In this document: positions 1 to 14,847 of the stretch, piece after piece | Layout: the number at the start of each line of letters is the position of its first letter | Numbering within the stretch: the stretch's first letter is position 1 | IMG/VR virus record: IMGVR_UViG_2711768058_000013 | Span: 1-16,071 of that record | From: a virus | Lineage: Duplodnaviria; Heunggongvirae; Uroviricota; Caudoviricetes | Strand: one strand, 5' to 3' | DNA: 16,071 nt | Position numbers and translations under genes: made by a program | Notes under the pieces: model-generated | What the model saw: the letters and a program-made list of their open reading frames with translations, nothing else | Told to the model about the DNA's origin: nothing | Databases searched by the model: none

Positions 1-1050
1 TCATGTCAGGCTCTCACGAATCTCCCTGACAGTCTGAGCAAAACGTTCTGATTCCAGTTCAACACCAGTTGCACGACGCCCGAGCGCCATAGCCGCCTTT
101 ATGGTTGAGCCAGAACCCATGAAGAAATCCGCCACCATGTCACCAGGACGACTGCTCGCGCTGATTATCTGCTGCAGCATTTCTGCCGGTTTTTCGCACG
201 GATGTTTCCCGGGATAGTACTGCACCGGTTTATGCGTCCACACATCCGTGTACGGCACCTGCGCCGTCACGCCAAAATACCGCCGCAGATGCTTATATTC
301 ACTCTGCAGTTCCGCATACTGCCGGTTCAGTGAAGTATACGTCTCCAGCAGCTGGTGGTGGGGCTTTTCCAGTTCACCCCGCTGATGCTTCTCTTCTGCC
401 ACCCGGGCAAACAGCGCCTGTAATTTCAGATAATCGCTTTCGTTCGGCAGCTGCCACTGACTGGCACTGAACCAGTGCGACACCATGTTTTTCTTTCCTG
501 TGGCTTCGGCAATCTGTTTTGCCGTTATACCCAGTTCGGCACGAGCATCCCTGAAATACGATATCAGCGGTGCCATTATGTGCTGTTTGAGTTCCCTTTC
601 TTTTTCCGCATAGACGTCACTTTTGCCGCGATATGGCCCCTGGTAATGTTCAGCAAACAGAACGCGCTCTGTAGCGGGGAAATATGCCCGCAGGCTTTCT
701 TTATTACACCCGTTCCATCGTCCGGACGGCTTCGCCCAGATGATATGGTTAAGCACGTTGAAACGTTCACGCATCATGATCTCGATATCAGATGCGAGGC
801 GATGTCCACAGAACAGGTAAAGGCTTCCGGCAGGTTTCAGTACCCGCCAGAACTGGGCCAGACAGAGGTCCAGCCACTTCAGGTAATCTTCGTCCCCTTT
901 CCACTGATTGTCCCAACCGTTGGGCTTCACTTTGAAGTACGGCGGATCGGTAACTATCAGGTCAATGGAATCATCAGGCAGGGACTGAATAAAATGCAGG
1001 CAATCAGCGTTGATTAAATCAACACTGTTTATTTTTACAGTATTTTTCAT
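1..1050 (-). CDS. Orphan DNA N6-adenine/N4-cytosine methyltransferase (beta-class amino-methyltransferase)
   Basis: 349-aa ORF with stop at 1-3 and ATG at 1048-1050. Motif IV (IVTDPPYF) near the N-terminus and the AdoMet-binding motif I (DFFMGSGST) near the C-terminus, the beta-class order. No adjacent restriction endonuclease is recognisable. Position matches the yfdM-like methylase of CPS-53-type prophages (recollection). Confidence 0.85.
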   Translation of the reverse strand: MKNTVKINSVDLINADCLHFIQSLPDDSIDLIVTDPPYFKVKPNGWDNQWKGDEDYLKWLDLCLAQFWRVLKPAGSLYLFCGHRLASDIEIMMRERFNVLNHIIWAKPSGRWNGCNKESLRAYFPATERVLFAEHYQGPYRGKSDVYAEKERELKQHIMAPLISYFRDARAELGITAKQIAEATGKKNMVSHWFSASQWQLPNESDYLKLQALFARVAEEKHQRGELEKPHHQLLETYTSLNRQYAELQSEYKHLRRYFGVTAQVPYTDVWTHKPVQYYPGKHPCEKPAEMLQQIISASSRPGDMVADFFMGSGSTIKAAMALGRRATGVELESERFAQTVREIRESLT

Positions 1051-1200
1051 GGATCAGTAAGCGTAACTCTGGTAGGCTCACTCTGCTTTTGCGCTAAAGC
1101 AGTGGGCCGTGGTTCGCTTGTGACCAGTAAGCATGAGCGAATGGCTGGCAGGTGCTACCAACACCCACCAGCCGCCCATTTTCACAGCAGGAAACCGCCA

Positions 1201-1404
1201 TTACTGGCAGCGTCTGAATTTATTCCCGTACCCGCCGTTATCCTTCGCCAGACCCGCCAGAACTAACTGAGTCAGTATTAACTGGCACCGGGCTTCGCTT
1301 ACTCCGGTAGTTCTCGTCATCATGCATGGCGTTACCCACTTGTCAGCAGGTAAGAAATGAAGGACTGCGGCGGCGGTTTCTGTCATATCTTGCTGTTTTA
1401 GCAT
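1201..1404 (-). CDS. Hypothetical small prophage protein, possibly winged-helix-like
   Basis: 75-codon ORF in the track (1201..1428). The internal ATG at 1402-1404 is preceded by a GAAGGG Shine-Dalgarno-like sequence about 9 nt upstream; the ATG at 1428 has none. No recognisable family. Confidence 0.4.
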   Translation of the reverse strand: MLKQQDMTETAAAVLHFLPADKWVTPCMMTRTTGVSEARCQLILTQLVLAGLAKDNGGYGNKFRRCQ

Positions 1405-1520
1405 GTCTTTTTCCCTTCTGGTTAACATGACATACCAATAACTCTTGTCTAAAAAGCCAGCAAGATAAAAAGTCAGTATTCACGACCACCAGCGTGTTTA
1501 CTGTACTGCACCAAGTTTAC

Positions 1521-1548
1521 AGGTACAAAAAACCGCTCAGCGGCTGGT
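1521..1548 (-). terminator. Putative intrinsic terminator on the minus strand (hairpin plus T6)
   Basis: Read on the minus strand: AGCCGC-TGA-GCGGTT stem-loop (4 GC pairs plus G.U and A-T) followed by TTTTTT (complement of the A-run at 1527-1532). Lies between cassette 1 and the late-strand small gene. Confidence 0.35.
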
Positions 1549-1663
1549 TTAAGTTGTGTGGCGAAGTAACCACTCTTAACACGATACAATAGTTTTTGCG
1601 TACGCGTTAGTGGTTATGTAAACTTTCTCCATATAAAAACAGCAAAGAAGCGGATATTTTGAA

Positions 1664-2233
1664 ATGGCTACACTGGACGCATTCAGTAGAGTAATAACTC
1701 ATCATACTATTACGATCGATACACAATACCGTACACAGAAAATTGATGATAGCATCAGATCGAACTGTGTTTGCCCGGTACCAACAATGCGTGAACTTGC
1801 TTCTAAAATAGTACGTTGTAAAGCAATGATGCACAGTTATGAAAAAGGAGACTTAGTTTTAACTTTGCAAGATGTAATCTTCTTATCAAACAGAGCCGAT
1901 AAAAAACCCAGCCATCTTGGTCTTTTAATTAATGCTGTAGATAAAAATGGAAGCACTACTGTGTTAAAAAACATTAATACAGATGTTCGTACCGAAATAT
2001 CACCAAAACATGAGGAAGGTGAAGGTTACGAAGTTTCTTCTCATATGATTATTTCTCTAGACGGAAATATGCGAACCTATGACATGAGTTTTATGCCAAT
2101 ACCAGGAGTTTCCACAGCAAAAATAAATGGTTTCCTGAATAAAGTTCTCTTTAACGTAGCCAAAGATAATGAAGATATCTTTTCATGTAACACTTTAACA
2201 AATGAAGTATCAAGTTTAACAAAGAAAAAATAA
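1664..2233 (+). CDS. Hypothetical protein, AT-rich cargo (cassette 1, ORF A)
   Basis: 189-aa ORF, low GC compared with flanking phage genes, ATG at 1664, on the strand opposite to the flanking phage operon. No recognisable domain. Ends in a Lys-rich tail encoded by an A6 tract. Confidence 0.5.
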   Translation: MATLDAFSRVITHHTITIDTQYRTQKIDDSIRSNCVCPVPTMRELASKIVRCKAMMHSYEKGDLVLTLQDVIFLSNRADKKPSHLGLLINAVDKNGSTTVLKNINTDVRTEISPKHEEGEGYEVSSHMIISLDGNMRTYDMSFMPIPGVSTAKINGFLNKVLFNVAKDNEDIFSCNTLTNEVSSLTKKK

Positions 2234-2283
2234 AAGTATTATACAAGCCAGTCTTTGATATATCTGGAAAGTTAGATGAAGAT

Positions 2284-2691
2284 TTGTTCAATAAAATAAA
2301 TAAAGAAGGACTTTCTGATGTCGTTTTGGTAAAGAATGAATACAGAACTATTAATGCGCCAGATGTTAACGCGGCTATTATTCCTAAAGAAAGTACTTTA
2401 CGCTTAGTACCAAACCATGGCCCCAACAATGTCCTTGGATGGATAAAATCTGTCTCAAACTTCTTTAAAGAAGATAAAAATGGAGGTTATGACTTAATAA
2501 AAATAAAATTCAAAGAGCCAGAGACAGGATTCACAAGACAAGTTGACCTTCAAACTTCAAATGTAAGGCTCGATGGGCTGGAAAAAACATTTATCAAAAA
2601 GAGTGTAATAAATGGTTTTTCTTCGCGCTTAAAGGATTCTTATGATAGTATTAACATGGAGTTTGTGAATAAGATTATCGAGGTCATGTGA
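2284..2691 (+). CDS. Hypothetical protein (cassette 1, ORF B), possibly the frameshifted C-terminal part of ORF A
   Basis: 135-aa ORF with no ATG start (first start codon is TTG at 2284 with a weak RBS). Its frame is open back to 2206, overlapping the last 28 nt of ORF A. The stop at 2689-2691 is followed by GAGG and the ATG of ORF C. Confidence 0.45.
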   Translation: MFNKINKEGLSDVVLVKNEYRTINAPDVNAAIIPKESTLRLVPNHGPNNVLGWIKSVSNFFKEDKNGGYDLIKIKFKEPETGFTRQVDLQTSNVRLDGLEKTFIKKSVINGFSSRLKDSYDSINMEFVNKIIEVM

Positions 2692-2698
2692 GGCTAAT

Positions 2699-3274
2699 AT
2701 GATTAGTATATTTTCACATTTATTTAGACCGTTTGGTTACCTTTTTATTAAGGGAATTAGTGGTAAGTGCGCATACGATTTTTATGCACCTGCAGGGCTT
2801 GCTGTGATTTCTTTTTTTTACTTTTATTTATTTAAAATACCCACATCAGACCTACTAAAAGATGGCGGCTTTATTAAGTCTATATCTGGATTTGTATCAA
2901 ATCTGCCAGGTTTTTATATAGCAGCTCTTGCAGCAATAGCCACTTTCAACAGAGAACAAATTGACTACCCTCTGATAGGAACTAATGGCACGCCTTTTAT
3001 TAAAATTACACGAACAAAAGAAAATGGTAGAATTGTTGACACTCAAGAGAAACTTACCAGAAGATTATTTCTGTGCATGTTATTTTCATTTTTAACTGCC
3101 CTCAGCATATGCATAGTGATTTTCAACGCTTTTATCACACCACTAATAAACATACTGAATAATGATATAGCAAACTGGTGCTATATCATTATCTTTTTAT
3201 TCCTTACATGGCAAATGCTTGTTTCAACATTTTTTGGACTATACTATCTTGGTGATAGGATTCACATTAATTAA
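2699..3274 (+). CDS. Integral membrane protein, about four predicted TM helices (cassette 1, ORF C)
   Basis: 191-aa ORF with GAGG RBS 6-7 nt upstream of ATG 2699. Four long hydrophobic stretches (AGLAVISFFYFYLF; FYIAALAAIATF; LFLCMLFSFLTALSICIVIF; WCYIIIFLFLTWQMLVSTFFGLYYL). Its 3' end overlaps the convergent Q gene by 8 bp. Confidence 0.6.
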   Translation: MISIFSHLFRPFGYLFIKGISGKCAYDFYAPAGLAVISFFYFYLFKIPTSDLLKDGGFIKSISGFVSNLPGFYIAALAAIATFNREQIDYPLIGTNGTPFIKITRTKENGRIVDTQEKLTRRLFLCMLFSFLTALSICIVIFNAFITPLINILNNDIANWCYIIIFLFLTWQMLVSTFFGLYYLGDRIHIN

Positions 3275-3644
3275 CTACCATAATGGGGTTTATAGTTATT
3301 ATTACACCGCTGATAAACCCCATGGCAGTCTGCAATTCCTTCCTAATTGTGCCATCTGAACATCTTCTCTTCTTGGCAATAGTGCGTAATGAGATACCAA
3401 TAACAAAGTGAGCTATGATCAGCTCATATTCCTCTGGTTTATACTTTCGCAACCGAGCCACACAACCGTCTATCATGATGCCTTCATCATCATCACACTG
3501 GAGACGTGACTTTTTACCGTGTGGTAAAAGTCCCTTGAAACCAGCCGCTATCGGCTGCCAGTCCACACCACTATTTTCTGCTGCAGCCCATGCTCCCCAG
3601 CGGTCCAATACTTCATACATATCACGCATCAGCTTTCTCCACAA
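3267..3644 (-). CDS. Late-gene antitermination protein Q (QuuD-like short Q family)
   Basis: 125-aa ORF. The N-terminal WGAWAA motif, the Cys-containing middle and the C-terminal HTH-like segment resemble, as I recall it, the short Q antiterminators of E. coli prophages (DLP12 QuuD type). Last gene of the coupled minus-strand operon. Confidence 0.75.
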   Translation of the reverse strand: MWRKLMRDMYEVLDRWGAWAAAENSGVDWQPIAAGFKGLLPHGKKSRLQCDDDEGIMIDGCVARLRKYKPEEYELIIAHFVIGISLRTIAKKRRCSDGTIRKELQTAMGFISGVIITINPIMVVN

Positions 3645-3646
3645 AA

Positions 3647-4642
3647 TCAGGCCAGCACGCCAATTGCCAGCGCACGATCGATAAAACGAAATATCAGCTC
3701 CAGCTGGGAGCCATACTTCTCTTCAAATGCCACGGTATCCGCATGCAGCTCGTCGTGATGCTTTCTGCACAAAGGCAACACAAAAAGGTCATGCGCTTTT
3801 GTTCCCATTCCACCCTGACCGTGACCTATCAGGTGGTGGGGATCATCAGCGGGCTTTCCACAACATGCACACGGCTGTGTCTTAACCCAGCGCGTGTACT
3901 TTTCATTAACCCAGCGGCGACGTTTTGGGCGTAACATAAAAGACTCCGGCGACTCCGGATCCACTTTCAGCGCCAGCACCTTTTTCGCTTTATTCTGGAT
4001 GATGCTGGTGGCCGGAACCGAAGGAACAAGGTCACTCTCCCGGGTGACAGACGGCACAACAGGCTTCGGTAATCTCAGTGCCTTACGGGCTGCACTTTCA
4101 GGTAAGGCATCCGCCAGATCATTACGAACCAGCCACCAGCACAGTTCCGGCATTGTCACAACGTGACTGTCATCAAAACCGAGATCCCGACGCACGACAG
4201 ACAACACCCAGCGGGCACAGTTATCCGTTGCCATTGATTCCAGCCGTTCCGTGAACTGATCGCGCAGCTGGTTATCGCAGTGCCAGCACAGACGGATTGC
4301 GCCCGGCGCGTGACGCATTGTGGTCATGTTCTCGCTGTGCCAGTCGGAATGAGGCCACTGGCAGCCTTTTTCACGAAGTAACCAGCTTTCAAGACATTCC
4401 ACGCCACCAGCACGACGGATCACTGCCTCATTGCGGAACACGGCCCGAACGGCAGGATCATCCGCCAGCGGTTGTGATGCCGCCGGAACAGCACCACTGG
4501 CGAAAGATGAATAACGTTCCGGCTCAGGCTCCAGCAGGACACGCCCCTGCATAAACAGGGGCATCAGCTCTGAACCTGGTCTGAACAATACGATCCCCAT
4601 ACGCGGGGCAATTTCAGGGGTCAGTAGTGCTCTCACGGTCAC
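3647..4642 (-). CDS. DUF968-like prophage protein (YdfU family) with C-terminal Cys/His cluster
   Basis: 331-aa ORF with C-terminal CACCGKP...HHLIGHG...H...LCRKHHDELH metal-binding-like cluster. Sits between the KilA-N gene and Q as in Nin-region equivalents. Family name is from memory. Confidence 0.55.
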   Translation of the reverse strand: MTVRALLTPEIAPRMGIVLFRPGSELMPLFMQGRVLLEPEPERYSSFASGAVPAASQPLADDPAVRAVFRNEAVIRRAGGVECLESWLLREKGCQWPHSDWHSENMTTMRHAPGAIRLCWHCDNQLRDQFTERLESMATDNCARWVLSVVRRDLGFDDSHVVTMPELCWWLVRNDLADALPESAARKALRLPKPVVPSVTRESDLVPSVPATSIIQNKAKKVLALKVDPESPESFMLRPKRRRWVNEKYTRWVKTQPCACCGKPADDPHHLIGHGQGGMGTKAHDLFVLPLCRKHHDELHADTVAFEEKYGSQLELIFRFIDRALAIGVLA

Positions 4643-4643
4643 C

Positions 4644-5486
4644 TCAATGAACGGTATCGAGCAGCTTTAACAGCTCAGGGAATCGGGATTCGAAGAAATG
4701 CGGCTGCGTCTCGCGCGGATTTGCGGGACTGGTGATGTTCTTGCCAAACATGCAACCTTTCGCTGTCAGCGACCAGAATTTTTTGATGTTGTTAATCGCG
4801 GTACGGCTGTATCGTTCGCGTTGTTCAACGATCCCCAGCTTCGCCATCTGGTGATATGCCTGATTAGCCGTCAGGCGGATACCATACTGTTTCAGCAGTG
4901 CACTCAGTGACAGTGTAGGACGACTTGAGCCATCGTGTGCATCAGCAGGAGCATCAATGGCATAGCGCGGTGCCAGATTCGGTAAGCCAACAGCCTCCTG
5001 AAGTTTCTGACAGGCACCAAGCACTGATGAGTTAGACAGATTTAACTCCCGGCGCATAAAGTCCAGCAGAATCACGCCAGCCTGCATCTTGTCAGCAGCC
5101 TGCCAGGATAATTTTTCCGGTGCGCTGGTTACCATGTCGAAAGTGCGGATCACCTTCAGATGGAATGACGGGCTGATCCACATTGCATAGGCATACACCA
5201 GGTCCTTACAGACATATGTTCCGCCATTCCGCCCTTCTATTTTACTGACAGGTTTACTACCCAAATTTTGGGTAGTTTCATTGAATGAACCGACACCCAG
5301 ATTTTGGGTATCGATCAATTCCTGAACCAGCTCAGTAATCTGTTGGCTGGAAAGAAACTTTCCCGGCTCCTTGGTTCTGGCATTTGCACCAGATGCTACT
5401 GCTGCGCGATGCAGATCGTTCAGGCTGTAACGCCCATAAGCATCACGACGAACTTCAATACCATCAATGACCATCAGATTATTCAT
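4644..5486 (-). CDS. KilA-N domain-containing protein
   Basis: 280-aa ORF. N-terminal region (SLNDLHRAA..., GGTYVCKDLVYAYAMWISPSFHLKVIR) resembles the KilA-N DNA-binding domain. Tightly packed with neighbouring genes. Confidence 0.6.
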   Translation of the reverse strand: MNNLMVIDGIEVRRDAYGRYSLNDLHRAAVASGANARTKEPGKFLSSQQITELVQELIDTQNLGVGSFNETTQNLGSKPVSKIEGRNGGTYVCKDLVYAYAMWISPSFHLKVIRTFDMVTSAPEKLSWQAADKMQAGVILLDFMRRELNLSNSSVLGACQKLQEAVGLPNLAPRYAIDAPADAHDGSSRPTLSLSALLKQYGIRLTANQAYHQMAKLGIVEQRERYSRTAINNIKKFWSLTAKGCMFGKNITSPANPRETQPHFFESRFPELLKLLDTVH

Positions 5487-5505
5487 ACTTCGTTTCTCCT
5501 CTTAA

Positions 5506-5895
5506 TCAGGCGGCTGCACCCGCCGTTTTCTCGTACTTACTGATAGTGATCTCGACCTTCCCTTCCGGGATAACCGGTCCCCACTCCACCAGCATTCTTT
5601 TCACCTGACTGTCGTCTTCCCACACCCCCGCGTGGGTCAGGGCGTCAAACAGCGCCTTGTTATAGTTGTCCAGATCGCGGATCCGGTTATCCGGAGGAAA
5701 CAACACGATCTCCACTGAAGCAGGTGCCGACGTTGGTTTTGGCAGACGACGTAACTGCTCAACTATTGCTGCACACGCCGCGCTCTGGAATTTTCGCCCC
5801 GCCGCGCTTATCAGGCTCTTACCAGCAAACGCCCCTTTGTTGGGGTGTCGCCAGTACGTGTTCACGCTGGGCGGAAAAGGCAGGATCAGCTTCAT
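5506..5895 (-). CDS. rusA: Holliday junction resolvase RusA
   Basis: 129-aa ORF with the RusA-type motif RIRDLDNYNKALFDALTHAGVWEDDSQV (catalytic Asp cluster). Start ATG overlaps the stop of the upstream gene (ATGA). Confidence 0.8.
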   Translation of the reverse strand: MKLILPFPPSVNTYWRHPNKGAFAGKSLISAAGRKFQSAACAAIVEQLRRLPKPTSAPASVEIVLFPPDNRIRDLDNYNKALFDALTHAGVWEDDSQVKRMLVEWGPVIPEGKVEITISKYEKTAGAAA

Positions 5896-6218
5896 ACTTT
5901 CAGGCCCCTCTCATGTAACCAGTGGACTGCACGCAGTCTGGCGTTTTCCTCACCGGCAAGCAGTGCGCGGATAATCCCGGCTGCCTCACTGTCGTCATCC
6001 TTCACTGTGGTATGAAGCGTGATACCCCGGGCCACGCCACGCTTTATCGTGATGACGCCTTTTTTCTCCAGTGCGCGAAGATGCTCCACCGCTGCATTCA
6101 CCGAACGGTATCCCAGCATGGTTGCCACCTCCTGATTGGTTGGCGGGAAACCACGTTCTTTCTGATAAGAAATCAGCATATCCAGCACCTGCTGCTGGCA
6201 TTGAGTTAACGTCGTCAT
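5892..6218 (-). CDS. LexA-type DNA-binding domain protein, no S24 peptidase domain
   Basis: 108 aa from ATG 6216-6218, which overlaps the TAA of the upstream gene (TAATG). LTQCQQQVLDMLISYQKERGFPPTNQEVATMLGYRSVNAAVEHLRALEKKGVITI matches the LexA N-terminal winged-helix pattern. The track ORF extends to 6251 without an ATG. Confidence 0.6.
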   Translation of the reverse strand: MTTLTQCQQQVLDMLISYQKERGFPPTNQEVATMLGYRSVNAAVEHLRALEKKGVITIKRGVARGITLHTTVKDDDSEAAGIIRALLAGEENARLRAVHWLHERGLKV

Positions 6219-6712
6219 TAAGCCCCCACGTAATTCCCTGACAGATACCACTCTTCACCCGATGCAGCACGCTTGCTGCTTTTCCGTAAGCACTGCTCAC
6301 GACGAGCCAGAAAATTGTTTCGTTCTGGCTGGGAGTGGCTTTCTCGGAATGCCGCCATCCACACCGTTGCAGCACGACGGTATAAGCCCCTGGACTCCAG
6401 TTCTTCAGCCTGGCGGGTCAGGCACAAAATCACCCGTGGATCGTTAGTGCCGACATAGAAATTGCGCACAGATCTGGTTTCACGAACTGGTTGTGGCTCC
6501 GGCCCCTGCGCTCTCTCAGTCAGGCGCGGGAAATGTCTGCGTGTATCTCCTTCACAACGGTGAGCCACACTCCCACTCTGACGTAACTTGCTTGCTGACT
6601 GCAGAACGCGCTGCCGTGAGTAATCTGCAAAAGCATCCGCAATGTCTCCGGAAGTACAGCCCGGATGGGCTTCAATGAATTTCTGAACTTCATTCAAAAG
6701 ACTCATGCTCAC
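6218..6712 (-). CDS. yfdN: PerC-family transcriptional regulator (yfdN-like)
   Basis: 164-aa ORF. AEELESRGLYRRAATVWMAAF...RREQCLRK resembles the PerC/Pch signature (AExLExxGLWRRAAxRW). 164 aa equals the length I recall for K-12 YfdN. Start overlaps the stop of the O-like gene. Confidence 0.5.
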   Translation of the reverse strand: MSMSLLNEVQKFIEAHPGCTSGDIADAFADYSRQRVLQSASKLRQSGSVAHRCEGDTRRHFPRLTERAQGPEPQPVRETRSVRNFYVGTNDPRVILCLTRQAEELESRGLYRRAATVWMAAFRESHSQPERNNFLARREQCLRKSSKRAASGEEWYLSGNYVGA

Positions 6713-7650
6713 CCCCTGAATCCTGCCGGGATCTGGCTGTAGTCCACATTGTCGTAACTGGCTTTGAAGTACGGGTCTTCGCGTTTTTCTGTGTACGTGC
6801 TGACGGACGGCGATAAGCGCAGGGAAAGCTCATCCCATTTTTCCCGCAGCTTCGACGGGCTGAGCACGTTACGGCACCAGAACGGATCGCGGCTGACGCG
6901 GCTGTACATCTCGCAGATTTGTTTGTGAGTACGACCATCCTGCACACACATCAGGCGAATTTCGTTTGCCCAGGCTGTCCAGTTCGGTTCTTTGGGACGA
7001 ACCACCTCGCCGTCACATTCGGCGGCCTGCTCGTACAGGGCGATGATTCTTTTCCAGAGCCACTGTGCGCAGGTCAAATCATCCTGCGTTCCCCACTGGC
7101 GCTTTTTAGGGCTGAATACAACCGCATCAGGATGGCGAGTTAAAAACTCCTGTTCAGCCGTCTGCGTGTCCGGTTGCGAAGCGTCCGGACGAGAAGTTTT
7201 TTTATCTGACGGATCATGTTTTGATTTTACTGACGGATCCCCGCCAGATTCTGACGGGTGAAAACCCGCTTTTTTGCCAGATTTCGACGCATCAAATTTT
7301 GACGGGTCAGATTTTGATGTGTCAGATTTTGACGGGTCATAATCTGACAGTTGAGAAAATGCCGCTGCCTGAAGCTTCGCAACGTTAAGCTGATAAACAT
7401 TCGACGCATTGCGGTTACCCTGGCGACGCGCCTTACGCGTTAACCAGCCTTCTGCTTCCAGCCGTGCGATAGCCGTTCTGACGGTACTCATCCCCGCGCC
7501 AATCTGACGGGCAATAGTTTCAATTGATGGCCAGCACACACCTTCGTCATTACTGAAATCAGCCAGGCGGGCCATAATTGCCACGCTGGATAATTTCATG
7601 CCTGATGCAGCGCAACCATCCCATACATAGCCGGTTAATTTAGTGCTCAT
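6709..7650 (-). CDS. Phage replication initiator, O-like (yfdO-like), with internal origin iterons
   Basis: 313-aa ORF with N-terminal winged-helix (SSVAIMARLADFSNDEGVCWPSIETIARQIGAGMSTVRTAIARLEAEGWL), a central low-complexity K/S/D/P-rich linker encoded by DNA iterons, and a C-terminal domain. Analogous to lambda O, where ori lies inside the gene. Confidence 0.7.
   Translation of the reverse strand: MSTKLTGYVWDGCAASGMKLSSVAIMARLADFSNDEGVCWPSIETIARQIGAGMSTVRTAIARLEAEGWLTRKARRQGNRNASNVYQLNVAKLQAAAFSQLSDYDPSKSDTSKSDPSKFDASKSGKKAGFHPSESGGDPSVKSKHDPSDKKTSRPDASQPDTQTAEQEFLTRHPDAVVFSPKKRQWGTQDDLTCAQWLWKRIIALYEQAAECDGEVVRPKEPNWTAWANEIRLMCVQDGRTHKQICEMYSRVSRDPFWCRNVLSPSKLREKWDELSLRLSPSVSTYTEKREDPYFKASYDNVDYSQIPAGFRG
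7204..7352. repeat. Iteron array, about 8 direct repeats of a 15-bp unit (consensus near GATTTTGACGGGTCA); putative prophage origin
   Basis: Copies include atctgacggatca, ttttactgacggatcc, agattctgacgggtg, agatttcgacgcatca, aattttgacgggtcag, attttgatgtgtcag, attttgacgggtcat, aatctgacagttg. Located inside the O-like coding sequence. Confidence 0.65.
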
Positions 7651-7998
7651 GACCGACCTCTACTTCCCTGAATTTACGACGAAACTGTTCGAGCGGGCTG
7701 AAGCACTCATGCTCATAGCCTTCGCGGAGGTAGATAACTCGTTGTGTTTCCGGCTCCCAACGAATGACTCTGACGGGCACTCCGTAGTGATCTTTGAACC
7801 AGCGGTTAACTTGTCGCAAAGGACTGTCTCCTTCTGCCGGTTGAAATCACCCACAGCCCACTCAGCAAAGCTGTGGGTTACAATTTCCCTGTCACCTGGT
7901 ACATTAACTGCATAGCAATACTCCACCTTCGCTTTTCCACCCGGTACAGGAAGCGCAATCAGTTGCGAGCGACGGTAGTGTGTTGTTAAACTGTTCAT
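7640..7998 (-). pseudogene. Small gene split between two reading frames (frameshifted gene or two nested small genes)
   Basis: Frame A: ATG 7996-7998 overlaps the stop of the upstream CII-like gene and runs to 7660 (112 aa, C-terminal half low-complexity). Frame B: open from 7846, AAGGAGA Shine-Dalgarno (complement of 7827-7833) plus TTG 7817-7819, stop TAA 7640-7642 overlapping codons 3-4 of the O-like gene. Both frames are translationally coupled to a neighbour. Confidence 0.4.
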
Positions 7999-8603
7999 GC
8001 GTTAGTTTCTCCACAGTCACGACACGCCACGGCGCCCGGAGCTGCACACTCGCGGGCGTCATTACTTTCTGAAATGCAAAAGATTTTGTAGACCAGTGCT
8101 GCATGCTCCTGCAGCTTCGAAATTGAGAGATACAGCTCGTCGTTAATTGCTGTCTTCTCATGCGGTTCCACCACACCGTCTTCGATTGCCGAACGAATCT
8201 GTCTGGAATAACTGCCAATCTGTTCAATGACTTCCAGCAGGCGCTGGTTAATATCGGCGTTGTCCACATCCTCGACGTCAGGAAGAGACACAAAGACGCC
8301 ATTTGCAGACTGCGCCACAGCGTCAGCAATGAAGTGAGTTCCACCAGCACGTTGCAAAATCATTGCCCATCCCAGCGGGAAAATCTGATCGCCATCGGCA
8401 CGAAGGCGGTTAAATAATGCGTTTTCTGTTACATCCAGCCAGTCAGCTGCTTCAGCGTAACCACCCGGCAACGCTGCGATAGTTTTTCTGACAGCTTTCA
8501 CGTACCACTCAGGCTGTTTTTCTACTTTCCAGTGATGCTTACCCACGGTTAGCCTCATCGTTCTGTGGTTTCTGTTAATCGATTTATCCATTAGATTTTT
8601 CAT
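7995..8603 (-). CDS. CII-like lysogeny regulatory protein (CP76/YdaT-type), putative
   Basis: About 200 aa. Sits immediately downstream of the cro-like gene, overlapping it, and upstream of the replication gene, the canonical cII position. ATG at 8603 or 8591; the track ORF extends to 8660. Family assignment is from weak recollection only. Confidence 0.45.
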
Positions 8604-8784
8604 AAAGCTCAGGTTTAAATGGCAACCGTCCGCAAGTTCTATATGCAGCTTCTGCTGCACGTCCTTTTGGAATTAACTGGCCCGGACGGTTTCGCCACTG
8701 ATAAACGGCTTCAGTTGTTATGCCGAAAAAAGCAGCAACTTTCTCAATACTGCCGAAGTAGCTTTCGATATCGTCAGTTGTCAT
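8584..8784 (-). CDS. cro: Cro-type HTH repressor (Cro/YdaS-like)
   Basis: 66-aa ORF, divergent from the cI-like repressor across a 97-bp operator region. HTH-like segment FFGITTEAVYQWRNR. Confidence 0.7.
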   Translation of the reverse strand: MTTDDIESYFGSIEKVAAFFGITTEAVYQWRNRPGQLIPKGRAAEAAYRTCGRLPFKPELYEKSNG

Positions 8785-8881
8785 ACGCCCTCCAAACTAA
8801 GTTTTATTAGATGCTAATTACAAATCTATCTTTGGTCAATAAAAACTAAGATTACTTAGCAATTCAAGAAATGGTGCTCCT
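8785..8881. promoter_or_regulatory. OR-like divergent promoter/operator region between cro and cI
   Basis: 97-bp AT-rich intergenic region. Operator-like repeats AACTAAG at 8795-8801 and 8844-8850; the second lies in the palindrome CTAAG-ATTA-CTTAG (8846-8859). The same heptamer recurs downstream of cI. Confidence 0.6.
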
Positions 8882-9508
8882 ATGGAAACGGTTGGTCAGC
8901 GTATAAAAGCTCTGAGAAGAGTTACCGGAACGTCCCAGAAAGAATTGGGTAAATTTTGTGGAGTAAGCGACGTTGCTGTGGGGTACTGGGAGAAAGACAT
9001 CAATACCCCTGGTGGGGAGGCACTTTCGAAATTAGCGAAGTTCTTCAATACGTCAATAGATTACATTCTTTATGGTGCTGAGTTTGAAGGCAAACTCGTC
9101 ACAAACATGCGCAGAGTTCCTGTAATATCGTGGGTTCAGGCTGGGCAGTTTACTGAGTGCAGGGCAGCAGAAGTGTTTAGTGAAGTGGACAAGTGGGTAG
9201 ATACATCATTAAAGATTGGTGATAACTCATTTGCATTAGAGGTTAAAGGTGACTCCATGACTAACCCTAATGGCCTCCCAACAATACCAGAAGGCGCAAC
9301 AGTGATTGTAGATCCAGATGCAGAACCTCGTCATGGAAAAATAGTCATCGCTCGACTTGATGGAACAAACGAAGCTACAGTAAAAAAATTAGTCATCGAT
9401 GGCCCTCAAAAGTTTTTAGTGCCATTAAATCCTCGGTATCCCAACATCCCTATCAATGGTAATTGCCTTATCATTGGTGTAGTCAAAGGAGTTCAATACG
9501 AACTCTAA
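8882..9508 (+). CDS. cI: CI-type prophage repressor (XRE HTH plus S24 LexA-like autopeptidase domain)
   Basis: 208-aa ORF. N-terminal HTH (QRIKALRRVTGTSQKELGKFCGVSDVAVGYWE), C-terminal S24 motifs with catalytic Ser in GDSM and Lys in ATVKKL. Divergent from cro. Confidence 0.85.
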   Translation: METVGQRIKALRRVTGTSQKELGKFCGVSDVAVGYWEKDINTPGGEALSKLAKFFNTSIDYILYGAEFEGKLVTNMRRVPVISWVQAGQFTECRAAEVFSEVDKWVDTSLKIGDNSFALEVKGDSMTNPNGLPTIPEGATVIVDPDAEPRHGKIVIARLDGTNEATVKKLVIDGPQKFLVPLNPRYPNIPINGNCLIIGVVKGVQYEL

Positions 9509-9517
9509 GACCTCTCT

Positions 9518-9590
9518 TCTCTAACTAAGGCACCGAACTAAGAAAAGTTTGGTGTTTTCTCTTGCCATAATAACTAAGTTAAGTTAGATT
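9518..9590. promoter_or_regulatory. OL-like operator cluster downstream of cI
   Basis: Three further copies of AACTAAG (9523-9529, 9536-9542, 9572-9578) in the AT-rich spacer between the cI stop and the next plus-strand ORF, in the position equivalent to lambda OL/PL. Confidence 0.45.
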
Positions 9591-9693
9591 TTATATCAAA
9601 AATAACGAACAGGCAGGACGCCCACGAAGTAGCCGCCTGGGGCATATGAAGTCCAGGATGATTCGTTGAGTCATGTTGTGCCACTAGGCACTC

Positions 9694-9990
9694 ATGTTAA
9701 AGCAGGTGTATGAAATGAAAGTCCAGATTTTAAACAATAGTGGTGAAGTCGTTTGGTCATACGACATAGCCGCCCATGTAGATCAGAGCGGCGATAGCTG
9801 GGCCAATGGGAAACATCAGATTATGGCTGGAGTTGTGTTCTCTTTACGCCGTGCTTTGGAACAGGCTGAAGTATTTCCATCAGACCCTGAATGGAAATGG
9901 CCTTTTTCTATTTGTCCAAATTCGGAGAGCACATTTCAGAAAATTGGTCAGAAAGTCGCACTCGAAGAGCATCAGCCAACTGTTTCCTGA
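9694..9990 (+). CDS. Hypothetical protein, first gene of the putative leftward early operon
   Basis: 98-aa ORF. The in-frame ATG at 9715 has a better RBS (AGGTG 6 nt upstream) and may be the true start. No recognisable family. Confidence 0.5.
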   Translation: MLKQVYEMKVQILNNSGEVVWSYDIAAHVDQSGDSWANGKHQIMAGVVFSLRRALEQAEVFPSDPEWKWPFSICPNSESTFQKIGQKVALEEHQPTVS

Positions 9991-10003
9991 TTTTTTCAGG
10001 TAA

Positions 10004-10153
10004 CTAGTCGGCATCGCAGAAACAACAACGCTCGATCATGTTGAAAGCCGATTCGTAGAACTGTTTCTGCTGAGTGTCGCTGAGACAGGAAAAGAGCGAC
10101 GTTACGATGATTTTATTAATTGCATTATCAAGTTCTTTTTCATCAAAAGTCAT
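10004..10153 (-). CDS. Possible small protein (49 aa) not in the ORF track
   Basis: Manual translation of the minus strand: MTFDEKELDNAINKIIVTSLFSCLSDTQQKQFYESAFNMIERCCFCDAD. AAGGA Shine-Dalgarno 7 nt upstream of ATG (complement of 10161-10165). Below the usual length cutoff. Confidence 0.3.
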   Translation of the reverse strand: MTFDEKELDNAINKIIVTSLFSCLSDTQQKQFYESAFNMIERCCFCDAD

Positions 10154-10408
10154 TTGATTTTCCTTTTATGTATACGGGCTTAAAAGGATACCACCGAGCC
10201 TGAAGTGGTGAAAAGACAGGCACATAACAGCTAAGTATTTTCAACCAGAGAGAATCCTTAGCGTTGTGGTGAATGCGGCTCAGCGCACGCGGGTTAAGGT
10301 TGAGGCTGACAGTCGACCTTCTGTGGATACCCACCCGTCTGGTGTGCAACCTTCGCCAGGCACCGGGAGGCACCCGGCACCACAACTTTATGCTGTGTGT
10401 AGTCCTGG

Positions 10409-10455
10409 CGGTACCAGTTTGTACCCTTGCTTCCGGCTGGTACCGTCCTTTTTAC
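10409..10455 (+). terminator. Putative intrinsic terminator or structured RNA element
   Basis: Inverted repeat CGGTACCAG (10409-10417) / CTGGTACCG (10437-10445) followed by TTTTT (10449-10453). The 19-nt loop is long for a terminator. Lies in a GC-rich segment with no convincing coding frame. Confidence 0.35.
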
Positions 10456-10590
10456 AAAACAGAGAAGAGCATCACCGGACGACGGGCTCATAACCCAATC
10501 CATCCGGGCGGCTGCCACCGCAGGTGTTCTTCTCTGTTTTGTGGAGAAACTAATCGGCCTTGCAGGGTCGATATGATGAGGAGCAGCAAA

Positions 10591-10953
10591 ATGGCTAGTG
10601 AACGCAGTACTGATGTGCAGGCATTTATCGGGGAGCTGGACGGCGGCGTATTTGAAACCAAAATCGGCGCAGTTCTCAGTGAAGTCGCTTCCGGTGTGAT
10701 GAACACGAAAACCAAAGGTAAGGTCTCACTCAACCTGGAAATCGAACCATTTGATGAGAACCGTGTGAAAATCAAACACAAACTCTCATATGTTCGCCCG
10801 ACTAACCGCGGGAAAATTTCCGAAGAAGACACCACCGAAACGCCGATGTATGTCAATCGCGGTGGTCGCCTGACTATTCTGCAGGAAGACCAGGGACAAT
10901 TACTGACTCTTGCCGGTGAACCTGACGGAAAACTACGCGCAGCAGGTCATTAA
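10591..10953 (+). CDS. yfdP: YfdP-like prophage protein, function unknown
   Basis: ATG 10591 with GAGGAG Shine-Dalgarno 7 nt upstream gives 120 aa, the length I recall for K-12 CPS-53 YfdP, and it sits directly upstream of a yfdQ-like gene. The track ORF start at 10273 lies in non-coding-looking GC-rich sequence. Confidence 0.6.
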   Translation: MASERSTDVQAFIGELDGGVFETKIGAVLSEVASGVMNTKTKGKVSLNLEIEPFDENRVKIKHKLSYVRPTNRGKISEEDTTETPMYVNRGGRLTILQEDQGQLLTLAGEPDGKLRAAGH

Positions 10954-11018
10954 TATCGTTCTTAATTAACTGATTATTTATCTCATCACTGAATATCTTT
11001 ATATAGTGAGGACTTATT

Positions 11019-11843
11019 ATGTCTCAGAACTTAGACGCAACCGCAATTAATCAAATCCATGCCCTTATTTCTGCTCAGGGTGTTAATGAAATTATCAGTA
11101 AGATTGGTGCCGATGCTGTGGCATTGCCTGAGAATTTCCGCATTCATGATCTGGAAAAATTTAATTTAAATCGTTTCCGTTTCCGTGGTGCGCTTTCCAC
11201 TGCCAGCATCGATGACTTTACCCGTTATTCTAAAGATCTTGCAGATGAAGGCACCCGCTGCTTTATCGATGCCGATAATATGCGTGCCGTCAGTGTGCTT
11301 AACCTGGGTACCATTGATGAGCCAGGTCACGCAGATAACACTGCCACTCTCAAACTGAAAAAGACAGCACCGTTCTCTGCCCTGTTGTCTGTTAACGGCG
11401 AGCGTAACTCCCAGAAGTCACTGGCAGAATGGATTGAAGACTGGGCCGACTACCTTGTGGGCTTTGATGCTAATGGTGACGCTATTCAGGCAACAAAAGC
11501 GGCTGCGGCAGTCCGTAAAATCACGATTGAAGCAAACCAGACCGCTGATTTTGAAGATAATGACTTCAGCGGCAAACGCTCCCTGATGGAATCTGTCGAA
11601 GCGAAGACCAAAGACATTATGCCAGTGGCATTTGAATTTAAATGCGTTCCGTTTGAAGGTCTGAAAGAACGTCCGTTTAAATTACGCCTCAGCATTATCA
11701 CTGGCGATCGTCCTGTACTGGTTCTGCGCATTATTCAGCTGGAAGCGGTGCAGGAAGATATGGCTAACGAATTTCGTGATCTGCTTGTTGAGAAATTCAA
11801 AGACAGCAAAGTAGAAACCTTTATTGGTACTTTCACCGCCTGA
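11019..11843 (+). CDS. yfdQ: YfdQ-like protein (DUF2303 family), function unknown
   Basis: 274-aa ORF with GAGGA RBS. Length and position (between yfdP-like and yfdR-like) match my recollection of K-12 CPS-53 yfdQ. Confidence 0.7.
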
Positions 11844-11855
11844 TTTCATTACTGC

Positions 11856-11880
11856 AAATGCCCCTGCGGGGGCATTTATG
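11856..11880 (+). terminator. Putative intrinsic terminator downstream of the yfdQ-like gene
   Basis: AAATGCCCC-TGCG-GGGGCATTT: 9-bp stem with GC-rich core and short U-tract (TTTAT), 13 nt after the stop codon. Confidence 0.4.
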
Positions 11881-11970
11881 GAAACGTAATTAACTCAATA
11901 ATCACCGGATGGTGATGGCTTCCTTTTACCCAAACTCAGCGCGGTGCAGCGCATATACGTGGAGAACAAA

Positions 11971-12507
11971 ATGTCATTTATTAAAACTTTTTCCGGGAAG
12001 CATTTTTATTATGACAAGATAAATAAAGACGACATCGTGATTAACGATATCGCGGTTTCCCTTTCAAATATCTGTCGCTTTGCAGGGCATCTTTCACACT
12101 TCTACAGCGTCGCCCAACATGCGGTGCTTTGCAGCCAGCTGGTGCCGCAGGAATTTGCTTTTGAAGCGTTAATGCATGATGCAACAGAAGCATATTGCCA
12201 GGACATCCCTGCACCACTGAAACGACTTCTTCCTGACTATAAACGGATGGAAGAAAAAATAGACGCCGTAATCCGTGAGAAATACGGGTTACCTCCTGTT
12301 ATGAGCACGCCAGTGAAATATGCCGATCTCATTATGCTGGCAACCGAACGTCGCGATCTCGGGCTTGATGATGGCTCTTTCTGGCCTGTACTGGAAGGCA
12401 TCCCGCCAACAGAGATGTTCAAAGTTATTCCACTGTCGCCAGGCCATGCCTACGGGATGTTTATGGAACGCTTTAACGGGTTATCGGAGTTACGCAAATA
12501 CGCATGA
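11971..12507 (+). CDS. yfdR: HD-domain phosphohydrolase (YfdR-like 5'-deoxynucleotidase family)
   Basis: ATG 11971 with GGAGA RBS gives 178 aa. HD motif (SVAQHAV...ALMHDATEAY). The length I recall for K-12 YfdR is also 178 aa. The track ORF starts at GTG 11944. Confidence 0.7.
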   Translation: MSFIKTFSGKHFYYDKINKDDIVINDIAVSLSNICRFAGHLSHFYSVAQHAVLCSQLVPQEFAFEALMHDATEAYCQDIPAPLKRLLPDYKRMEEKIDAVIREKYGLPPVMSTPVKYADLIMLATERRDLGLDDGSFWPVLEGIPPTEMFKVIPLSPGHAYGMFMERFNGLSELRKYA

Positions 12508-12541
12508 GTCTTTCAACTGCACAACCACTGGAGGGATAGCA

Positions 12542-12736
12542 ATGAACAACTTAATGACAACTAAACAGGTCGCCGACTTCTGTGGCGTTTCAGTATCAAC
12601 AGTACTTCGTTGGAACAGCGTAAACAGGAGGACTGGCCAGAAATACAGACCAGATTTTCCAGATCCTGATATAAAATCCTGCCCAAATAAATGGGCATCA
12701 CACAAGATTTATAGGTTTGCGGGTGTTATTGAGTAA
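12542..12736 (+). CDS. Excisionase / AlpA-family HTH protein (Xis-like)
   Basis: 64 aa from ATG 12542 with GGAGGG RBS 6 nt upstream. TTKQVADFCGVSVSTVLRW is the typical AlpA/Xis (MerR-like) HTH signature. Confidence 0.7.
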   Translation: MNNLMTTKQVADFCGVSVSTVLRWNSVNRRTGQKYRPDFPDPDIKSCPNKWASHKIYRFAGVIE

Positions 12737-12750
12737 GGTAGGTAGCACAG

Positions 12751-12900
12751 ATGTTAACTGACGCTTCTATAACACAAAGCAAACCTAATCTGACTGCACG
12801 CCCTACGCCAGAAACAGATCAAAGTTTAAAATATGCACCGTCCGGAGTGACGATTTTTGTAATATACAGTAGCCTCTATGGGTCATGTGACAGTGTATAG
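12751..12900 (+). pseudogene. Possible remnant of an integrase 5' end (49-aa ORF)
   Basis: Manual translation MLTDASITQSKPNLTARPTPE...: the first 12 residues fit the conserved N-terminus of P4-type integrases (L-T-D-x-x-I-x-x-x-K-P), after which similarity is lost. Lies 15 bp downstream of the excisionase. Confidence 0.3.
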
Positions 12901-12911
12901 GAAAAACAGAA

Positions 12912-13745
12912 GTGATCGATGACCCGTTACCAACGAATTGGAAAGATCTCCAGAACGGAGTCCAACGCATCTTCCGCAATGTTGGCTTATATGCAGAAGT
13001 CGAAGCCAATGTAGAGACTCCACGTGGTTCGGTGAATGTGGATGTTCTCGCAATAGATCCCAAGAGCGTAGATAAAATCAGATACATAGTAGAATGTAAA
13101 AACTGGAGTAACTCTGTGCCTCAGAGCGTAGTCCATTCGTTCACTACGGTGATGCATGAAACTGGGGCTAACATTGGTTTTATTATTTCAAAACATGGGC
13201 TTCAGCAAGGAGCAAAGCAGTATACACAAAACACAAATATCACTGGTATGACATATCTAGAATTTCAAAAGAGATATTTTGAGGCTTGGTGGAAAAGATA
13301 TTTTTGCCCACTTATAGGTGATGCTGCTGACAAGGTTCTTTTATACACTGAAGAATTCAACCATCAGCGAGACCGAGCTTATAGGAATCTTACCCCACAT
13401 AATAAAAAGATGTTTGATGATTTAAGGAGACAGGAAGGTGGCTCAATAATGATTTTATCGATGTTCAACTACATGTCGATATCGAGAGGACTAAAAACAG
13501 GAACATTTTTAAACGTTCCAAAAAGCCTAGATGACTTTAAAGCTATAGTGCTCTCTCAAATAACTCCTCATATCCAATGGAATTGCGACACATTCCGTGA
13601 ACTGTTGAATACGATTTTAAAATACTTAGCAGATATTAAATCAGAATTTGAAATGATATTCGGGGGAGATATTTTTGAACAAACAGATAATATCAGCGGA
13701 GTAACTCTTGATGGTCCTCCTTTGGGAGGGGATATTTATCTATAA
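12912..13745 (+). CDS. Mrr-like PD-(D/E)xK restriction-endonuclease-domain protein with unknown C-terminal domain (cassette 2, gene 1)
   Basis: 277-aa ORF with GTG start. N-terminal NVDVLAID...YIVECKNW...VVHSFTTVMHETGANIGFIISKHGLQQGAKQY matches the Mrr catalytic-domain pattern (D...D...(E/Q)xK...F...G.FI...A). The C-terminal 170 aa are AT-rich and unrecognised. Confidence 0.65.
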   Translation: MIDDPLPTNWKDLQNGVQRIFRNVGLYAEVEANVETPRGSVNVDVLAIDPKSVDKIRYIVECKNWSNSVPQSVVHSFTTVMHETGANIGFIISKHGLQQGAKQYTQNTNITGMTYLEFQKRYFEAWWKRYFCPLIGDAADKVLLYTEEFNHQRDRAYRNLTPHNKKMFDDLRRQEGGSIMILSMFNYMSISRGLKTGTFLNVPKSLDDFKAIVLSQITPHIQWNCDTFRELLNTILKYLADIKSEFEMIFGGDIFEQTDNISGVTLDGPPLGGDIYL

Positions 13746-13835
13746 TTATTAAACTACGCTTAACATTGTCGAATGTTCGATTCATCACTCGAAGCAGAAA
13801 TAAATCAACCTTTTATTTCTAATTAGGAATTTTTA

Positions 13836-14777: not shown

Positions 14778-14847
14778 TATGAAAGCCTTTGGAATGACAG
14801 CCAAGACATTTAACCAGATTCATCTGCTCATTAATCAAAGCAAATTG

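Follow-up and report, generated by a model that had tools for sequence, protein, structure and literature searches.

We analyzed a 16,071-nt stretch of DNA from a virus of the Caudoviricetes (IMG/VR record IMGVR_UViG_2711768058_000013, positions 1 to 16,071; hereafter the window, to whose full length all coordinates refer), and focused on the short interval between ymfL, a cII-like gene, and an O-like replication initiator gene, where two overlapping reading frames are found on the minus strand. Frame A corresponds to ymfM, which encodes a protein of 112 amino acids (aa), and frame B, which reads in the –1 frame relative to A, corresponds to a 59-aa gene of the DUF4222 family (Table 1). The original prediction, made from the letters of the window, held that either one gene had suffered a frameshift or a small gene was nested here. 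Our results argue for the nested gene: the interval probably consists of two separate small prophage genes, ymfM and a DUF4222 gene nested within it, and the overlapped tail of ymfM appears to be kept open so that translation can proceed to the start of the O-like gene.

Table 1. Coordinates of the genes and features at the ymfM locus, with the basis of each assignment
Feature	Position in window	Strand	Basis
S24-peptidase cI-like repressor	8882-9508	+	Profile matches
P22-Cro-like gene	8584-8784	-	Profile matches
ymfL, cII-like	7995-8546	-	Pfam Phage_CP76; NCBIfam YmfL equivalog; PGAP annotation of near-identical loci
Frame A = ymfM, 112 aa	7660-7998	-	Open reading frame list; homologues; NC_000913 annotation; phrog_1170
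ymfM conserved part, codons 1-60 (N-domain)	7819-7998	-	Third-position periodicity; phrog_20047; standalone homologues
ymfM overprinted tail, codons 61-112	7663-7818	-	Reads in +1 frame of DUF4222 gene
Shine-Dalgarno AAGGAGA of frame B	7827-7833	-	Sequence; embedded in ymfM coding sequence
Frame B = DUF4222 gene, 59 aa, TTG start	7640-7819	-	Pfam PF13973; phrog_1343; periodicity; PGAP
ymfM TAG stop	7660-7662	-	xTA of B codon 53 + G of next codon
O-like replication initiator	6709-7650	-	phrog_391; HTH_36

These genes (in order, cI-like repressor, cro-like gene, ymfL, ymfM, DUF4222 gene and O-like replication gene) make up the immunity/replication module of a lambdoid prophage, and the interval lies within the early rightward operon of that prophage. 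The assignment of ymfL was supported by the NCBIfam YmfL equivalog (167.7 bits; cut-off, 90), and that of the O-like gene by phrog_391 ('replication initiation O-like', E = 1.5e-135) as well as by HTH_36. As the original prediction had described, frame A begins on the stop codon of its upstream neighbor, the ymfL TGA (7997-7995) and the frame-A ATG (7998-7996) overlapping as ATGA (7998-7995), and frame B has a Shine-Dalgarno sequence followed by a TTG start (7819-7817, with a spacer of 7 nt) and ends beyond the start of the O-like gene, 8 nt inside which its TAA (7642-7640) falls. The frame-A TAG ends 9 nt ahead of the O-like ATG (7650-7648), which has a Shine-Dalgarno sequence, GAGG, at 7660-7657. 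Within the ymfM open reading frame (ORF) lie the Shine-Dalgarno sequence and the TTG of the DUF4222 gene, together with 53 of its 59 codons. This arrangement is common in Escherichia coli: the 541 bases around the interval matched 2647 of 5426 complete E. coli genomes (1932 at a coverage of at least 80%), and the e14 element of K-12 was among the matching regions.

Homologues of frame A were 112-aa proteins with identities of 94–98%, and frame A matched phrog_1170 over residues 1–112 (E = 3.8e-70). Its residues 1–60 also matched positions 1–60 of phrog_20047, a profile of 63 aa (E = 5.5e-43), and no match was found among Pfam or NCBIfam families. Past residue ~60 frame A is rich in S, T and A, in keeping with the low complexity that had been noticed in it, and the tail is S/T/A/G-rich in all lineages. 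The AlphaFold2 predicted local distance difference test (pLDDT) values were 32–45 for residues 64–112 and 50 for the full-length model, and the tail is accordingly modeled as disordered. A motif of the N-domain ('...tHsF', residues 19–50, 7849-7944) gave weak multi-stretch phmmer matches to the repeats of large surface proteins, namely, Pfam DUF7507 and Flg_new/Listeria-Bacteroides repeats. These matches hint at a beta-hairpin-rich fold of the N-domain, and the likeness is probably one of motif rather than of homology.

Frame B matched the Pfam family DUF4222 (PF13973) from end to end (positions 1–53 of 53, 69.8 bits with a cut-off of 27, E = 1.4e-19), with the match beginning at the TTG start, and it matched phrog_1343 as well. 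The same PF13973 profile was matched by the homologues from Morganella and from locus L022, and by RgdR, a characterized prophage protein discussed below. The DUF4222 homologues were 55–72 aa in the loci examined, and proteins named DUF4222 are mostly 59–70 aa. A start codon for B was retained in 150 of 150 haplotypes, and a GGAG-type motif was present at positions –15 to –4 of that start in 129 of the 132 haplotypes in which the two frames overlap. The DUF4222 protein was modeled by AlphaFold2 with a pLDDT of 82.8 as five strands and a short helix, which predicts a Tudor/SH3-like small beta-barrel; sequence searches against solved structures gave no match for either YmfM or the DUF4222 protein. 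By the measure of its profile match and its start site, frame B is thus a genuine and complete DUF4222 gene with its own Shine-Dalgarno sequence and start. In Escherichia phage vB_EcoS-733R5 (ON470608; L013 1635-1922), an antisense hypothetical protein is annotated at this place and neither sense frame is; the equivalent antisense ORF in the window is at 7643-7915 on the plus strand (90 aa).

We examined how the two genes are arranged in other genomes, using phage records, look-ups of the contigs encoding homologues and four viral-contig scans (a narrower alignment of frame A gave 7 genome-contig loci). Among phage records searched by tblastn, the N-domain was found in 42 and DUF4222 in 111. 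The N-domain stands alone in Providencia phage PSTRCR_117lys (63 aa, with the O gene directly after it via ATGA) and Hafnia phage yong2 (59 aa), and in Citrobacter phage phiNP a 65-aa N-domain is separated from DUF4222 by a rha gene; in all three phages the N-domain gene sits between a cII-like gene and the next gene. In an exhaustive phmmer search, the distant representatives of the N-domain were mostly 59–68 aa. These results indicate that the N-domain and DUF4222 are, on the evidence of their separate distributions, independent modules, of which DUF4222 is the more widespread.

Where the two genes are adjacent, two types of junction were observed. In 23 loci of the Morganella/Providencia type, the stop codon of a 63-aa N gene and the start codon of the DUF4222 gene overlap as ATGA. 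In E. coli, Klebsiella, Phytobacter, Pantoea and several metagenomic lineages, by contrast, the second codon of B has C as its first base, behind a start codon of TTG, GTG or ATG; the TGA has therefore become TGC, and frame A reads on for 52 more codons. This TGC (7818-7816) is the near-invariant Cys61 of frame A, at the site where related phages have the TGA stop. We refer to these two groups as the ATGA clade and the overlap clade. The –1 relation was retained in all 273 loci with adjacent N-domain and DUF4222 genes, a consistency that requires no special explanation because an ATGA junction automatically places the second gene in the –1 frame.

To determine which frame is seen by selection, we compared eight divergent loci and counted the differences between them by codon position. 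Upstream of the B start, the differences were most frequent at the third positions of frame A (601 versus 337 and 292), frame A retained a mean amino acid identity of 71% across lineages with 0 stops, and the other frames contained 3.8–3.9 stops per sequence. Downstream of the B start, the differences were most frequent at the third positions of frame B (506 versus 237 and 272), and within the overlap the amino acid identity of frame A was 0.34, compared with 0.35 in a non-coding frame. Polymorphism within the overlap, assessed in 48 E. coli-type haplotypes, gave a similar picture. Changes that are synonymous in B and non-synonymous in A segregate at 31 of 93 opportunities (0.33), compared with 3 of 106 (0.028) for changes that are synonymous in A and non-synonymous in B and 9 of 261 (0.034) for those that are non-synonymous in both frames; in other words, changes that are non-synonymous in B are depleted ~10-fold. 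These segregation and periodicity counts show that selection acts on the frame-B protein and not on the peptide of the frame-A tail. The boundary lies at 7819: the protein under selection is that of frame A on the upstream side and that of frame B on the downstream side. Purifying selection on amino acids was not observed in both frames of the overlap, where B alone is constrained, and the composition of the frame-A tail is set by the codons of B.

These observations bear on three other accounts of the interval. The first half of the original prediction corresponds to an ancestral N-domain/DUF4222 fusion gene that was broken by a frameshift or by a sequencing error, so that the locus would be a pseudogene. 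B lies in the –1 frame of A, so one single-base indel would fuse them, and fused proteins of 102–119 aa do exist in databases (P0030, P0052, P0059 and P0065), but these are rare indel variants in small clusters of 1–14 member sequences. The split two-frame form was found in all 273 adjacent loci, including 7 divergent lineages, and in 1932 E. coli genomes; an uninterrupted single-frame form was not the normal state in the relatives compared. In addition, the halves occur as separate genes and are joined as two ORFs by ATGA in the sister clade, B retains its own start codon and Shine-Dalgarno sequence, and in the lineages that we examined the frame of B is closed by a stop lying 1–14 codons ahead of the start. 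We therefore consider a broken fusion gene to be extremely improbable. A programmed –1 ribosomal frameshift could instead yield an N-domain–DUF4222 fusion beside the separate products, and it would fit the –1 relation that is conserved wherever the two genes touch, an A_AAG tetranucleotide in frame A of E. coli (offset 204) and the Shine-Dalgarno-like AAGGAG upstream. However, the ancestral ATGA junction gives the –1 relation anyway, no X_XXY_YYZ heptamer was found near the junction in 11 representative loci, and A_AAG is not conserved, loci L021 and L025 being devoid of any candidate site. Moreover, the Shine-Dalgarno sequence is ~30 nt from A_AAG, which is too far, and 7 nt from TTG, where it is well placed for initiation, and the RNA fold of 7865-7785 revealed no significant structure (z-score –0.31). 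Programmed frameshifting is thus very unlikely. The assumption that one of the frames must be spurious, that is, that frame A is a chance ORF beside a real DUF4222 gene or that B is spurious within a real ymfM, agrees with current annotation, in which each frame is listed without the other. The PGAP (Prokaryotic Genome Annotation Pipeline)-annotated E. coli genomes that we inspected list only a 59-aa 'DUF4222 domain-containing protein' (WP_001250269.1), that is, frame B, and the curated MG1655 record (NC_000913) lists only ymfM (b1148, 'cell division inhibitor YmfM', 112 aa), that is, frame A. Against this assumption, codons 1–60 of frame A show periodicity, conservation, freedom from stops and standalone homologues, and frame B shows a full Pfam match, periodicity, the 10-fold depletion of non-synonymous changes and a confidently predicted fold. 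A single real frame is accordingly about as improbable as programmed frameshifting, and both frames can be regarded as real, each selected as a protein in a different part of the interval.

Although the peptide of the ymfM tail is unconstrained, we found that no stop interrupts frame A anywhere over the DUF4222 domain in seven clusters of B (<80% mutual identity; 232 loci and 123 haplotypes), with one exception. The only haplotype found with a premature frame-A stop was L185 (IMG/VR UViG_2563366891_000011, locus 1201-1592), in which Val4 of B is GTA instead of GTT, a change that is synonymous in B, cuts YmfM to 63 aa and leaves DUF4222 intact. Other short or odd frame-A proteins in databases, considered as candidates for natural truncation, proved to be contig ends, insertions or indel variants. 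At ~7735 (codon ~88 of frame A, just past ...SRKHNGL), several database variants of frame A (P0021, P0022, P0024, P0025, P0026 and P0027) all switch to unrelated sequence, which suggests a break point that recurs there, whether through rearrangement, insertion or assembly.

We estimated how often frame A would remain open by chance by resampling the synonymous codons of B. The probability that it stays open over B as far as was seen was ~7% for this locus and 0.02–0.13 per lineage, with a product over the seven clusters of ~2e-8 if the clusters are independent, which is only approximately so. When the codons of B were permuted within the gene, the P-values were weak (0.04–0.73), since the codon set of B already avoids risky codons. 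A comparison of at-risk with safe sites, a contrast with the ATGA clade and a polymorphism test were added after this weak result. Where a Val, Leu or Ile codon of B is followed by A or G, its last base is T or C, and these two bases alternate within and between clusters. At such at-risk codons, 2 ended in A/G and 35 in T/C in the overlap clade, compared with 10 and 4, respectively, in the ATGA clade (Fisher test, P = 4e-6). In the ATGA clade, GTG-A and CTG-A are in free use, and the corresponding frame contains 4–7 stops. Within the population, synonymous transversions of B that create a frame-A stop segregate at 1 of 30 opportunities, compared with 41 of 164 for other synonymous transversions (P = 0.005), and 1 stop-creating polymorphism was observed where 7.5 were expected. 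Stop codons are thus selected against in the ymfM tail, while its peptide sequence is unconstrained. The original prediction, which had noticed the low-complexity tail, did not foresee that selection keeps it open.

We further analyzed the position at which frame A ends. In every lineage of the overlap clade, the frame-A stop is found close to the O-like ATG, at –10 to +10 nt, and this holds even where a C-terminal extension of B runs 43–46 nt into the O-like gene. The B codon that makes the TAG is codon 53. It reads GTA in the window; most haplotypes have ATA, a rare codon for Ile, and a small number have GTA or TTA. The xTA was retained at this codon in 52 of 52 E. coli-type haplotypes, although nearby synonymous sites are highly polymorphic. 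In other clades, the stop of the N gene likewise overlaps the start codon that follows it (ATGA), and B meets the O-like gene through ATGA as well. The stop/start proximity typical of coupled operon junctions is thus present at both ends of ymfM, with the ymfL-ymfM ATGA on one side and the short distance to the O-like ATG on the other. Frame A and the O-like gene share a reading frame, with the TAG and three codons between them (7648-7662), so that loss of the TAG would fuse YmfM to the initiator. Read-through of the TAG, for example in an amber-suppressor host, would give such a YmfM-initiator fusion. Taken together, the avoidance and placement of stops suggest that selection preserves the tail for the sake of its translation, the most likely purpose being to couple translation to the O-like gene.

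Two alternatives to this interpretation of the tail need to be weighed. The long open frame A could be a by-product of ancestry and of the codon bias of DUF4222, with no selection on it. The lineages are related, the chance of openness is appreciable in each of them when taken singly and more so when the gene's own codons are permuted, and T/C-ending codons are preferred at safe sites too. On the other hand, synonymous sites have turned over, the alternation at at-risk sites being between T and C and never with A or G, stop-creating changes are deficient within the population, the ATGA clade tolerates stops in the same frame, and the rare ATA codon is retained exactly where the frame-A stop is made. 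We consider a mere by-product to be improbable. It is also conceivable that the YmfM protein itself needs the 52-residue tail, which could, for example, extend it with a disordered segment, mark it for degradation or mediate interactions, with composition mattering more than sequence. The selection against stops and the uniform S/T/A/G-rich composition and predicted disorder in all lineages would be consistent with this, and the filamentation experiments described in the available text of the report on K-12 ymfM (see below) used the full 112-aa ORF. However, relatives of the N-domain function without a tail at 59–68 aa, the identity of the tail between lineages equals that of a non-coding frame, its composition is dictated by the codons of B, its end tracks the O-like ATG and not any protein feature, and L185 is a natural haplotype without it. 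Given the tail-less relatives and the tracking of the O-like ATG in particular, a requirement of the protein for its tail is the less likely explanation, and we regard it as unlikely, albeit less so than a by-product.

Several points weigh against translation of the tail toward the O-like gene as the reason for its maintenance. The safe sites of the same genes also favor T/C (22 versus 8 ending in A/G), so that the within-clade contrast reaches only P = 0.034; the statistics of stop avoidance treat lineages and sites as independent even though ancestry is shared; and some of the stop-creating changes also make rare codons, which may be mildly disfavored anyway. RNA structure was not notable around either the B start (z = –0.31) or the O-like start (z = +0.84), and hence nothing positively indicates a coupling mechanism. 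The coupling rationale is one that we infer, and a tail needed by the protein itself would leave the same signature.

With these points in mind, the following scenario would account for the locus. The ancestral type of junction would be the ATGA of the sister clade in Morganella/Providencia prophages, in which gene 1 stops on the start of gene 2. In the lineage of the window, a change of TGA to TGC would have let the ribosome on ymfM continue for 52 codons across the DUF4222 gene. The tail drifts freely with the synonymous sites of the DUF4222 gene, with stops selected against along its length and a stop retained at the O-like start. Translation of frame A up to this point may keep stop/start coupling and ribosome cover continuous from ymfL and ymfM to the replication gene, either by termination-reinitiation coupling or by covering the mRNA with ribosomes, while DUF4222 would be initiated internally. 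In the strongest form of this idea, the 3΄ third of ymfM would be maintained only to be translated, as a conveyor of ribosomes across the nested DUF4222 gene to the O-like start; this stronger form is tentative, and we rate it as possible but doubtful. If true, it would mean that the K-12 SfiC/'YmfM' inhibitor is the N-domain of ~60 residues or the nested DUF4222 protein, and not the 112-residue protein.

Out-of-frame overlapping gene pairs are already known in phages, and both of the present genes are individually in databases. At this locus, two major annotation systems disagree, and the evidence presented here supports both genes. The locus is also a clean natural example of an ATGA junction that has become a long out-of-frame overlap. 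An ORF segment that is selected to stay open without constraint on its peptide is relevant to gene finders and to dN/dS-style tests applied to phage overlaps.

Regarding the neighboring genes, the start of ymfL is ambiguous: its ORF is open to a GTG at 8660, and a start there would create an overlap of 77 nt with the cro-like gene (8584-8784); the start used by PGAP is equivalent to 8546. Inside the O-like gene, the segment 7201-7352 on the minus strand contains five to six direct repeats with a period of 15 nt (CAGATTTTGACGGGT and variants) and two copies of TTTAxCTGACGGATC. Both sets of repeats resemble the iterons of a replication origin lying within the initiator gene, an arrangement known from lambda. 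No match was obtained in an Rfam search of the window, no tRNA was found in a tRNA search, and a scan for promoters and terminators gave counts not above those of shuffled sequence.

Among known systems, the closest is ymfM of the K-12 e14 prophage (b1148). In the available text of the report by Ansari et al. (bioRxiv 10.1101/2020.11.19.390815), this gene is identified as the SOS-inducible division inhibitor SfiC, its ORF blocks Z-ring formation when expressed from pBAD24, and its deletion lowers SOS filamentation in a sulA mutant. The gene in frame A is this ymfM, flanked by the same neighbors (ymfT-like, ymfL and O-like genes), but the K-12 gene is published, as far as that text describes it, as one 112-aa protein, whereas in our comparison conservation as a protein is confined to the first ~60 residues and the rest overlaps a second gene. 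According to the methods described in the same text (10.1101/2020.11.19.390815), the ymfM clones, screen clones and deletions carry or remove both genes. As the constructs are described, the active product in the division block is thus ambiguous, and the agent could be either the N-domain of ymfM or the DUF4222 protein. We found no mention of a second frame in the literature on ymfM that our search covered; this coverage was incomplete and does not prove that the frame has gone unnoticed. SfiC had been sought for 35 years before it was assigned to ymfM by means of constructs that, as described, cover both genes, and single synonymous changes could separate the two products.

Besides RgdR, no characterized DUF4222 protein was found in our searches. 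RgdR (ECs1581, 99 aa) of the enterohemorrhagic E. coli prophage CP-933C activates LEE1 and type III secretion, represses motility and binds DNA non-specifically (PMC3378721, PMC10877973), and its RGD motif matters for the activation of type III secretion (PMC3378721). It is 43% identical to frame B over a core of 49 residues, both proteins are full DUF4222 matches, and each is a small prophage protein whose gene immediately precedes a replication gene, which suggests that DUF4222 genes are generally associated with the starts of phage replication genes. On the other hand, RgdR has N- and C-terminal extensions, compared with the 59 aa of frame B, and its RGD (residues 20–22) is VNR in frame B, the alignment to ECs1581 starting at residue 24. 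RgdR is encoded before the primase gene of a P4-like element and is not nested in another ORF, and it overlaps that gene as ATGA, whereas frame B ends inside the O-like gene. In E. coli O157:H7 Sakai, the gene (ECs_1581) was located at 23305-23604 of locus L289 in prophage Sp7, and the primase gene that it overlaps is ECs_1582.

The relation between the two frames can also be compared with better-known pairs of overlapping genes. Programmed –1 frameshift sites are found in orfA/orfB of the IS3 family and in dnaX. As in these systems, the two ORFs here overlap and the downstream one is read in the –1 frame; unlike them, the present locus is without a conserved slippery heptamer or stimulatory structure, and its downstream ORF has a conserved Shine-Dalgarno sequence and start. 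The Rz/Rz1 spanin genes of lambdoid phages occur in embedded, overlapped or separated layouts, and both of their overlapping frames encode constrained protein sequence. In both cases a small out-of-frame gene lies in or over the 3΄ part of another and relatives show alternative layouts, which for the pair described here are an ATGA-separated form and a long overlap. The difference is that in ymfM the overlapped part of frame A is without amino acid constraint, and only the avoidance of stops is maintained.

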